A stretch of DNA of 64,000 bases from NCBI RefSeq assembly GCF_003019035.1, contig NZ_CP027448.1; one strand, 5' to 3'. The position numbers are program-made. This stretch comes from Escherichia coli. GTDB taxonomy: Bacteria > Pseudomonadota > Gammaproteobacteria > Enterobacterales > Enterobacteriaceae. The number at the start of each line of letters is the position of its first letter. Position 1 is the stretch's first letter. This document shows positions 1-3,000 of the stretch, in pieces.

Positions 1-3000
1 CAATGGTACCCGTGTTGAAAGCACCGGAGATGATAACGTCCGTACCCGTCTGGGCGTGAAAACCTGGATTAAAGGGCACAACAAAATGGATGACGGTAAG
101 GCACAACAAAATGGATGACGGTAAATCACGTGAATTCAGTCCGTTTGTGGAAGTAAACTGGTTGCACAATACCCGTGATTTTGGTACCCGCATGAACGGT
201 GTAACGGTACATCAAGACGGTGCCCGTAATATCGGAGAGGTCAAAACTGGTGTGGAAGGTCAAATAAATCCCCATCTGAACCTGTGGGGGAATGTGAGAG
301 TTCAAGTTGGTGATAAAGGGTATAACGACACCTCAGCCATGCTGGGTGTGAAGTATACATTCTGAGTCTAATTAAAAGAGCAAAGCCCTGTAATTCTTGC
401 AATTACAGGGTTTACCAGAGAAGGCAGTCTGCATTGAACGAGCTTTTTGGTAGCGCAGTTAATAAGGTGTTTTACTCCGGAACCACCGAAGAACCTGTTT
501 AGGATTTTGTGTAAATGTCTTTTCTCAGAAGTTACCGTCCAGGCGGTCACCGAACTCGATAATAAAGCGGCTCATTGCCATACACCTGTCCCTCAATGGC
601 CTTTTCATGACCTTCTATTTTCAGTATCCTCTGCAAACATCATAGGATCGCGGAGTTGTAATTTAAGCTGCTCGCCAAAACCGTATTGATATTTACTGAG
701 AGGTCAGAGCAACTTTCTAGGGCAACAGATCGCGTACCCGGTTTGCCGGCCAGTCCTGGATATGCTCAATGACGTAACGCAGCCATTTTTCCGGTTCCAC
801 ATTGTTCAGATGGCATGTGCCGATCAGCGAGTACAACACCGCCGCATGTTCGTCATTTATACCTTTGCATTTCTGCTCTTGGTTGTACCATAGAGTGAGC
901 CTGCTTACCCAAGCGCTGACTTCCTCTATTCTCCGAAAACAATTATCTAACCACCATGGACAATACTTAATCTTCTGGAAGGGTGATTCGAAATAAGGGG
1001 GGATTATTGCAGGCCTGAAGATGGGAATAATAATTTAATATACTAAGTGTGTGCATTTTTGCCAGCAACTTACACCCCAACATTGCCCCCGTCATTATCA
1101 GAATGAAGGACCAGATTGCGGATGAGCATTTTTCATTCCATATATCACGTTGAAGCCGTTCTTCCACATACTGTGCTGATTCTTTCGTAAATACTTCTGC
1201 AGCAATCTTTTAGGTTATAAAGAACGATAATCATATGGGGATAAAATGTTGCCCCTTACCCCATGATGGAGCATATAGCTAATATCCCAGTAACCCACCT
1301 GTTTTGAGGCTATAGTTTTAAGGGCTTCAGGTCGATGTAACGGTATTCACGGATTCCCCCTGTCAATTTGTTAACATATTTTAACATGCTATAAAAGGTC
1401 GATTTAGAGATGATATAAATCCCCTGTCAGCAAAAGTCTGAACGATAATTTTTGGAGACAATAATGCCAGCTTTGGAAAGTTACATACATCAGGTTGCGT
1501 AAGAGTTGACAGGAAGAAGATTTGTCATACATGCTCGCAGCAATACTGACTGTCTTCTGTTACGGAGATACGTACTGTTGTGGGTAAAATTGGCATGCAG
1601 GTATTGATATTGGTTATTTTTTTTGTTATTAGATATTTCTGTGGTGAATGGATTTAACTTTTTTGGCAGGATATCAGTGACCTGTTGATCATGAAATCCC
1701 TTTGAATACTAGAGTGATAAAATATTTTGGTTTGTTTTTTTGTGAAATTCTGCAATTTATAATCTACTTAGAAGACGGTTGCAACAGTATTATTCCGGAG
1801 GATCTGAATTTCTGAGGTTTATGAGTTTTGTCACAATGGCAGGACTCTGGTTTGTTGTCAGGCTTACTACTGACTGGATGTATAATTATTACTGACCATA
1901 TTCCAAGATAAGTACCTCATATGTCGGGAACCATAATAAAAATCAGAACAGATGAAAATGTTTTGTTCGCAGCTATTCACCGCATCGAATGGTTGTTTGA
2001 TACATTCTCTTCTGTCTGCCTGTCTTTTTCCGGAGGAAAAGATTCCACAGTGCTTTTCCATCTTGTGGCTGATGTGGCCCGCAGGAAGAACCGTCGTTTC
2101 TCTGTATTGTTCATTGACTGGGAAGCCCAGTATCAGTGCACCATTGAACATATTCAGAAAATGCGGGAAATGTACCGGGATGTGACGGATACCTTTTACT
2201 GGGTGGCACTTCCCCTGACCACGGTTAACGGTGTCTCGCAGTTTCAGCCGGAATGGATATGCTGGGAACCCGGTGTGACATGGGTTCGCCAGCCACCGGA
2301 AGAAGCTATTACTGATATGGAGTATTTCCCCTTTTATCAGTATGCCATGACATTTGAAGAATTTGTTCCCGCATTTTCTTCCTGGTTTGCCAGTAACAGG
2401 TGTGGAGTGGCAGTGCTGACCGGTGTCCGAGCAGATGAATCCCTCAACCGCTTTATGGGACTGGTGTCCCAGCGCAAACTGAGATATGCCGATGATAAAC
2501 CCTGGACTACGGCATCGCCTGAAGGGTTTTACTACACCATGTATCCGTTGTATGACTGGAAAGCCCGCGATATATGGATATATAACGCCAGGACCCGTGC
2601 CATCTACAATCCCCTGTATGACCTGATGTACCGCGCTGGCGTGCCGTTACGTAACATGCGTGTCTGTGAACCCTTTGGTCCGGAACAGCGCAAGGGACTA
2701 TGGCTTTATCATGTTCTGGAGCCGGAAACGTGGGGCCGAATGTGTGAGAGGGTGTCCGGTGCTGCCAGCGGAGCACTTTATGCCAACGAAAGCGGTGCCT
2801 ATTTTGCCCTGCGTAAACGTATATCAAAACCAGCCCATCATACCTGGCGCAGCTATGCGATGTTCCTGCTGGATGTGATGCCGGAAAGAACGGCAGAACA
2901 TTACCGTAACAAGATAGCTATCTACCTGCGCTGGTATCAGACCCGGGGATTCCCGGATGACATCCCGGATGAACAGGAAAATGACCTGGGGGGCCGGGAT

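Follow-up and report, generated by a model that had tools for sequence, protein, structure and literature searches.

A 25-bp tandem duplication in a probably already inactivated autotransporter gene on an Escherichia coli plasmid

Results and Discussion

A tandem duplication breaks the 3' end of an autotransporter gene

The window analysed here, a stretch of 64,000 nucleotides from the Escherichia coli contig NZ_CP027448.1, begins inside an autotransporter gene of the AIDA-I type (type Va). The 3' end of this gene (copy 1) contains a 25-bp unit twice in tandem, and a fragment of a related gene (copy 2) lies further downstream (Table 1). Tandem Repeats Finder (TRF), applied to window 1-1000, reported a single array at 75-124 with a period of 25, 2.0 copies, 100% matches and no indels. 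Neither boundary allows an extension of the repeat (G74 versus A99 and G100 versus A125). The duplication itself, which the original prediction had placed at 76-100 and 101-125, was confirmed; those coordinates are one base off since G100 differs from A125. At the junction, GACGGTAA is directly followed by GGCACAAC, or in a wider form GATGACGGTAA by GGCACAACAAAATGG. The second copy is the sole indel between window 1-1734 and plasmid C311 p1 of a bovine E. coli (NZ_CP062205.1).

The 64-kb window was scanned exhaustively for exact tandem duplications with periods of 8-300 bp. Between periods of 9 and 107 bp the 25-bp duplication was the only hit; outside that range, the scan returned two matches of 8 bp and the passenger repeats (108 bp) of a different autotransporter gene. 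By our own arithmetic, a 25-bp exact tandem match is expected by chance in 64 kb with a probability of about 64000 x 4^-25, i.e. below 1e-10. Neither the repeat scan nor alignment found a second exact copy of the unit elsewhere in the window.

Table 1. Features of the window discussed in the text.
Feature	Position	Strand	Remarks
3' end of AIDA-I-type (type Va) autotransporter gene (copy 1)	1-365	+	last 112 native codons of 839 plus 25-bp insertion; frame 2, then frame 3
25-bp unit GGCACAACAAAATGGATGACGGTAA, first copy	75-99	+	TRF, exact-repeat scan, alignment to single-copy relatives
25-bp unit GGCACAACAAAATGGATGACGGTAA, second copy	100-124	+	+1 frameshift relative to intact alleles
Residual 84-codon open reading frame (MDDGKSREF...KYTF)	111-365	+	called as a separate gene when the upstream frame is broken
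Premature TGA, upstream frame	116-118	+	after native residue 760 and five aberrant codons (AQQNG)
Hairpin, 10-bp stem, terminator-like	386-410		21 nt past the stop codon of copy 1
Transposase remnant between autotransporter gene and ibrAB	717-851	-	coordinates transferred from C311 p1 12692-12826; window collinear there
IbrA-like PAPS (3'-phosphoadenosine 5'-phosphosulfate)-reductase-family gene	1921-3147	+	weak match to PF01507, PF11922 (DUF3440); neighbour, functional link not shown
IbrB-like gene	3138-3776	+	neighbour, functional link not shown
Copy 2, 5'-truncated remnant (last 120 codons) of F-plasmid ycbB-type gene	29083-29445	+	TAA 29092-29094, TAA 29335-29337
Intact 1645-aa homologue of F ychA (second of F's tandem autotransporter genes)	30070-35007	+	open reading frame; ~91% identity to F locus

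When one copy of the unit was removed in silico, frame 2 was open for 112 codons and ended with the native stop codon TGA at 363-365. The 112 amino acids obtained in this way match positions 160-254 of the 255 positions of the autotransporter β-domain PF03797 (E = 1.8e-09). With both copies kept, frame 2 reads NGTRVESTGDDNVRTRLGVKTWIKGHNKMDDGK-AQQNG and stops at TGA 116-118, while the remainder of the gene continues in frame 3. The +1 shift introduced by the second copy thus creates the premature TGA in the upstream frame, and the PF03797 match together with the frame 2 and frame 3 translations bears out the predicted frameshift in a β-barrel gene. The frame loses 79 C-terminal residues of the ~280-residue barrel, among them the final GVKYTF. 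In the window the KYTF end is encoded only in the other frame, so that the uninterrupted frame of a type Va autotransporter is missing. Because the frame is broken at the duplication, copy 1 is a pseudogene of the type Va family and not a functional member.

In type Va secretion, the C-terminal strands and an aromatic β-signal are needed for barrel assembly dependent on the β-barrel assembly machinery (BAM). Translation arriving from upstream would pass the duplication and end after five wrong residues. A truncated barrel without its last strands and C-terminal β-signal would probably not be assembled by BAM; with their loss, neither insertion into the outer membrane nor export of the passenger to the surface would be expected.

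Slippage had also been proposed as the origin of the duplication. No junction microhomology is present at either duplication boundary, and the DNA fold at the ancestral single-copy site is no more stable than that of shuffled sequence (z = +0.99). Slippage between short direct repeats and hairpin-templated synthesis are thus both unsupported.

Related plasmids carry an intact and constrained form of the gene

In C311 p1 the gene begins with ATG and the start MKKSQLSVIISSFLFSPLASA, and its frame is open for 839 codons. Open frames with the same start have 839 codons in RM8082, 841 in the more distant allele of a ZYB62 plasmid and 850 in the chromosome of the baboon isolate PapRG-04-4. By inspection, this start (MKKSQLSVIISSFLFSPLASA followed by A), which lies upstream of the window, resembles a signal peptide in combining a basic n-region, a hydrophobic core and A-x-A, and is conserved in four alleles. 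Comparison with the upstream sequence, which had been suggested as a check and was carried out here via relatives, revealed a full-length passenger gene in the sister alleles.

Domain scans of the intact 839-aa allele placed PF03797 at residues 558-817 (positions 1-254 of 255, E = 1e-43). Upstream of the part covered by the window, the autochaperone domain PF18883 (AC_1) was found at residues 373-485 (E = 4e-29), together with a match to PF03212 (Pertactin; E = 8e-09). TIGR01414 was matched over profile positions 3-432 of 432 (E = 3e-119). Among solved structures, the AIDA-I translocator 4MEE aligned to residues 394-839 (E = 5e-101), and the IcsA autochaperone structures 3ML3 and 5KE1 matched residues 377-504. 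The intact allele therefore shows the architecture of a type Va autotransporter, with a barrel (PF03797/TIGR01414) preceded by an autochaperone and pertactin-like β-helix. The strong sequence match to 4MEE suggests a 12-stranded barrel fold. An AlphaFold2 model of the C-terminal 340 amino acids was all-β with a mean predicted local distance difference test (pLDDT) score of 46.8, and was not used for a strand count. The allele stays below every cut-off of the NCBIfam models for AIDA-I, MisL, ShdA, YfaL/EhaC and ECSE_1600. Since no named NCBIfam equivalog reaches its cut-off, the gene is described here as an unnamed AIDA-I-type monomeric autotransporter.

The RM8082-type intact protein of 839 aa is found on 126 contigs, and GenBank submitters have deposited complete proteins for intact alleles. 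Between alleles of up to 14% protein divergence, the ratio of nonsynonymous to synonymous substitution rates (dN/dS) is 0.23-0.29 overall, and every indel between the diverged intact alleles is in-frame. The intact sister alleles are under purifying selection. The Prokaryotic Genome Annotation Pipeline (PGAP) labels the copies of the relatives 'incomplete; missing N-terminus'. This label cannot be taken at face value, given the open reading frame (ORF), the domain scans and a dN/dS of 0.18-0.32 in the N-terminal 265 codons, the very part left out by PGAP.

On 15 complete plasmids an intact ORF of 839-850 codons is labelled partial by RefSeq/PGAP (e.g. C311 p1 9821-12340), and in 14 of them the first ~261 codons carry no annotated feature at all. 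The partial-pseudogene label thereby understates the adhesin repertoire of plasmids from bovine and farm E. coli.

The C311 and RM8082 alleles were also compared along their length. The passenger has a dS of 0.003, and codons 531-640 (~110 codons at the start of the barrel) have a dS of 0.115. The divergence of these codons looks like a recombination patch. The lineage of the window has the RM8082-type patch.

The duplication is found in other public datasets

Seven plasmids, among them C311 p1 and RM8082 p1, differ from window 1-700 in nothing but the 25 bp and match 675 of the 700 bases; of a 121-base query over the junction, these relatives match 96 bases. The duplication was absent from 5,426 complete E. 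coli genomes (RefSeq) and from 72,556 PLSDB plasmids. The identical duplication was present in four Logan assemblies (SRR8895322, SRR27018329, SRR21291792 and SRR24464880), which are built directly from reads of the Sequence Read Archive (SRA), and in four NCBI draft assemblies (GCA_020315415.1, GCA_029753315.3, GCA_012647285.1 and GCA_017839375.1). All eight datasets show 0 mismatches to the window over the available overlap, which for SRR8895322 and SRR27018329 includes window 1-700. SRR8895322 and GCA_020315415.1 match window 1-3742 exactly, a region in which C311 differs at 69 sites. Since this exact match is followed by structural divergence, the two represent close relatives and not the same molecule.

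Further support is provided by predicted products. The junction-specific product of 537 aa, ending in DDGKAQQNG, occurs on nine Logan contigs, including those of SRR21291792 and SRR24464880. The 84-aa product (window 111-362) is on record as a separate gene on 24 contigs, which fall into two groups. One of them consists of metagenome contigs of the European Nucleotide Archive (ENA; L010 and L012-L014) with a single copy of the unit and another lesion, GGA>TGA at codon 736. The Logan assemblies of SRR8895322 and SRR27018329, which have the duplication, form the second group. The exact product of the 91-aa ORF at window 90-362 is not on record among ~15 billion proteins.

As the identical junction recurs in eight other datasets produced by different pipelines, an assembly artefact can be set aside: the mutation is real and is shared by a number of public isolates. 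An inspection of raw reads had been proposed as a check; as far as assemblies can answer it, independent read-based assemblies reproduce the duplication. Copy 1 should consequently be annotated as a frameshifted pseudogene, and the duplication should not be 'corrected'.

In other datasets an 11-bp deletion accompanies the duplication

Over 2,520 bp, the allele with the duplication differs from the RM8082 allele by exactly two indels and has 0 substitutions. One indel is the 25-bp duplication at codon 752. The other is an 11-bp deletion of ATATTAATGGA at codon 87, upstream of the window. The deletion site lies between GGTGTGGTAA and GGAAAAATTG, and the junction can also be written as GATGGTGGTGTGGTAA followed by GGAAAAATTGAGG; at most 1 bp of microhomology is present. 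Repair of both indels in silico restored the RM8082 protein exactly. The deletion alone ends translation at codon 90 (with GGVVRKN as the last residues). As -11 and +25 add up to +14 nt, the two shifts do not compensate each other.

The 11-bp deletion was present in all eight datasets with the duplication (8/8), whereas GCA_005399425.1 holds a deletion-only allele. The alleles can be told apart by their predicted products. An 89-aa product marks the deletion with or without the duplication (127 contigs), a 611-aa product the deletion only (nine contigs) and the 537-aa product the combination of both (nine contigs). A 765-aa product, which would mark the duplication only, has no entry among the ~15 billion proteins. 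One contig of 170,848 bp is on record with both the 89-aa and the 84-aa product. None of the 5,426 complete genomes carries the 11-bp deletion. The two indels are clean lineage markers for a plasmid clade that is seen in drafts and SRA data and is absent from complete RefSeq genomes.

The exact identity with contigs that bear the deletion suggests that the replicon of the window has it as well. The coding sequence had been described as otherwise continuous; this is correct for the 112 open codons within the window, and probably not for the gene as a whole.

Copy 2 is a separate relic of a ycbB-type gene

The gene names ycbB and ychA on the F plasmid follow PMC9997739. F 6977-10377 aligns continuously to window 29083-32472, a stretch that reaches from the end of ycbB across the spacer into the start of ychA, and the alignment carries on with F 9477-14334 to window 36016. 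Copy 2 therefore represents a syntenic ycbB stump that is cut at its 5' end. It lies downstream of the RepFIB gene repB and an integrase gene, has no duplication, and has its native stop TGA at 29443-29445. That this fragment lacks the duplication and has a stop codon of its own was correctly predicted (TAA 29335-29337); its homology begins at 29083, and the additional TAA at 29092-29094 had gone unnoted.

An ungapped alignment of 339 nt gives 74% identity between the two copies. To the last 339 nt of F ycbB, copy 1 is 91% and copy 2 80% identical. The dN/dS against F is 0.33 for copy 2 and 0.15 for copy 1, values that come from only 120 codons, too few to be decisive; for copy 2 the value is compatible with some neutral decay. 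Four further plasmids, pSTEC299_1 among them, have this stump with its TAA (99.0-99.4% identity), and in pSTEC299_1 the PGAP label reads 'internal stop; incomplete; missing N-terminus'. As an older, inherited relic, copy 2 is separate from copy 1, and its lesions are common to other plasmids and already annotated elsewhere. The view of both copies as decaying remnants of one family thus stands with respect to the family, as both match the 3' end of ycbB, and to copy 2 as a relic. It does not stand for copy 1 as an old remnant, since its intact form is common.

The 1645-aa ychA homologue next to copy 2 matches the barrel model TIGR01414 at residues 1201-1645 (E = 2e-88); no Pfam family was found for it at E <= 0.01. 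At 31200-32462 it contains 372-bp repeats in ~3.3 copies.

The duplication is best read as a second hit

Deletion-only alleles exist and a duplication-only allele was not found, which suggests that the duplication was probably a neutral second hit. We propose that an intact allele of the RM8082 type was first inactivated by the 11-bp deletion, and that the 25-bp duplication then arose in a sub-lineage. With this order, the duplication would have no phenotypic consequence of its own. Window 1-365 is, in all likelihood, the end of an inactivated AIDA-I-type plasmid autotransporter gene in which the duplication was a later neutral hit, with 29083-29445 as an independent, older relic. By this account, an ordinary second hit struck a gene that the plasmid lineage had very probably lost before.

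Several points weigh against this interpretation. The window begins inside the gene, so that the 11-bp deletion is not visible in the source replicon. An exact look-up finds the duplication-only allele only if a gene caller made that particular 765-aa product, and its absence is not proof. Support for the duplication comes from assemblies and not from raw reads inspected directly; SRA runs and GCA drafts may share isolates, which would leave fewer than eight independent samples. The intact allele is only presumed to be expressed, and no clear Shine-Dalgarno sequence precedes its ATG. Finally, the barrel model is of low confidence, and the number of lost strands is thus only an estimate.

Other members of the gene cluster carry different lesions. 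GGA>TGA at codon 736 (L010:3941, ENA ERZ27257856; similar in L012-L014) is an independent inactivation whose 735-aa product is found on 23 contigs. Other members end out of frame after approximately residues 476-502 (e.g. with DVVRELTVVTGI); these ends point to additional frameshifts of independent origin. The copy 1 gene has been hit independently at least three times.

These lesions allow a reading in which repeated independent inactivation reflects positive selection for the loss of an adhesin or antigen in cattle-associated E. coli and not neutral decay. The 11-bp deletion, the duplication, the codon-736 nonsense mutation and the ends near 476-502 all bear on it, and the duplication would then mark a successful clone. 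Sister plasmids retain the intact allele, on which purifying selection acts. We consider selection for loss improbable.

Alternatively, the duplication could be the primary, perhaps selected, inactivating mutation, in a source replicon without the 11-bp deletion. Indeed, it is the sole lesion inside the window and its removal gives a perfect frame; intact alleles are common and constrained, and the repeated, independent damage to the gene, as at codon 736, is compatible with selection for its loss. However, the 11-bp deletion is never missing from the datasets with the duplication, those that are exact to the window over 3.7 kb hold both lesions, and the duplication-only product is not on record. 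A primary role of the duplication is therefore quite improbable, and the deletion-first order is preferred.

The original prediction had further raised the possibility of a former partner of the IbrAB-like genes; in regulatory terms, both autotransporter fragments would be what is left of a target gene of these neighbouring regulators. The ibrAB-like genes lie 1.55 kb downstream of copy 1, beyond the hairpin and the transposase remnant, and the same spacing is seen in about 14 related plasmids. However, IbrAB-like pairs are widespread and mostly chromosomal: they occur in 2,145 of 5,426 genomes (~40% of complete E. coli), at 2,415 chromosomal and 76 plasmid places, versus 14 genomes with the autotransporter gene and its flank. 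No autotransporter gene adjoins the pair at the two sites inspected (E. coli 042 and RM9131). Conversely, the autotransporter gene is found without ibrAB in the PapRG-04-4 chromosome, where unrelated genes follow, and in the metagenome contig L013, where hlyD/hlyB follow. Homology with F ycbB and the PapRG-04-4 chromosome does not extend past the stop codon of the copy 1 gene, which lies just upstream of the hairpin; the transposase remnant separates the gene from ibrAB, and 25 kb lie between ibrAB and copy 2. The known targets of IbrAB are eib genes, coding for trimeric (type Vc) autotransporters, whereas the copy 1 gene is of the monomeric PF03797 type. With each found without the other, no conserved association exists, and a former regulatory partnership is very improbable. 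The adjacency is best explained by juxtaposition mediated by insertion sequences (IS) on a mosaic plasmid. A literature search under the names YuaO/YuaQ and IbrA/IbrB returned only unrelated papers. In a PADLOC scan, the IbrA-like protein showed weak similarity to the defence proteins BrxP and DndC of the PAPS-reductase type (E = 1e-07 and 3e-04), which is uninformative on a link to the autotransporter.

Were the duplication an artefact of assembly or sequencing, for example a k-mer overlap at a contig join or a mis-assembly between paralogous autotransporter genes, the gene would be intact in the real plasmid. Exactly 25 bp without junction microhomology does look like an untrimmed overlap, and the duplication is known from no complete genome or PLSDB plasmid, but the junction recurs in the eight other assemblies, an assembler could not be misled by another exact copy of the unit in the window since none exists, and no tandem duplication of similar size exists elsewhere in the 64 kb; we regard an artefact as practically discounted.

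Equally hard to credit is a reversible on/off switch (phase variation) by gain and loss of one 25-bp copy: tandem duplications can collapse by recombination or slippage, and autotransporter adhesins such as Ag43 are phase-variable (PMC3764049), but there is no hypermutable repeat tract as in a contingency locus, the complex unit was seen either once or twice in every allele, the irreversible 11-bp deletion leaves the frame broken (+14), and single-copy deletion alleles and intact alleles sit in different plasmid contexts, so that the one- and two-copy states do not flicker within one lineage.

Comparison with known autotransporter loci

The window shares several features with the F plasmid. 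Copy 2 is syntenic with F (3' end of ycbB, spacer, ychA), the ompP and α/β-hydrolase genes of F are also present in the window (7381-10048), and F YcbB has the same set of domains as the intact form of copy 1 (AC_1, Pertactin and autotransporter β-domain). However, F YcbB has 1371 aa compared to 839 aa, and nucleotide homology is limited to F 6061-7339, the translocator end. Copy 1 lies between ccdAB and ibrAB and not next to ychA, and while the F genes are intact, both ycbB-type sequences in the window are broken. Copy 1 thus shows neither the full-length homology nor the synteny of an F ycbB orthologue; copy 2 has the synteny with ychA, and only its last 363 nt survive.

With regard to AIDA-I, 4MEE is the best solved-structure match to the intact form of copy 1 across autochaperone and barrel, and the NCBIfam model auto_AIDA-I aligns to residues 372-839 of the intact allele. 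The score for this model (NF033176), 363 bits over profile positions 826-1287 only, is far from the cut-off of 1200. The passenger length is unrelated to that of AIDA-I, and no heptosyltransferase gene is adjacent to the copy 1 gene.

In sequenced E. coli strains many autotransporter homologues are truncated or pseudogenes, as described in a comparison with strain SE11 (PMC2608844). The copy 1 gene, with its several independent lesions, resembles these. It differs in the kind of lesion: a tandem duplication of 25 bp that lacks microhomology at its junction and occurs on the background of an 11-bp deletion. The locus is a case of ordinary pseudogene decay on a mosaic F-type virulence plasmid, a kind of feature that is already known. 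Its value is modest and consists in a duplication that is not an artefact, systematic under-annotation by PGAP and recurrent gene loss in cattle-associated plasmids.

Plasmid setting

The window is collinear with C311 p1 at ~98-99.7% identity, the match running from position 121300 across the origin of the record to 42890. As annotated, C311 p1 is an F-type mosaic plasmid with hlyCABD, katG, ompP, several autotransporter genes and many IS remnants. Two regions of the window are not collinear. Window 10609-13144 contains an extra ~2.5 kb including an IS66-like remnant, and at window 28652-33007 the ycbB stump and the 5' portion of the ychA homologue are retained, whereas C311 is occupied by IS3 copies there. 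The F block hydrolase-ompP-ycbB-ychA is split into window 7381-10048 and 29083-36016; the ~19 kb that separate the two parts include the hly operon and the RepFIB replicon.

A separate AIDA-like gene at window 54905-55522 contains 108-bp (36-aa) tandem repeats in 5.7 copies with 97% matches; in C311 a heptosyltransferase gene is adjacent to it. Overlapping BLAST blocks imply that the window has two more copies of this repeat than C311 p1.

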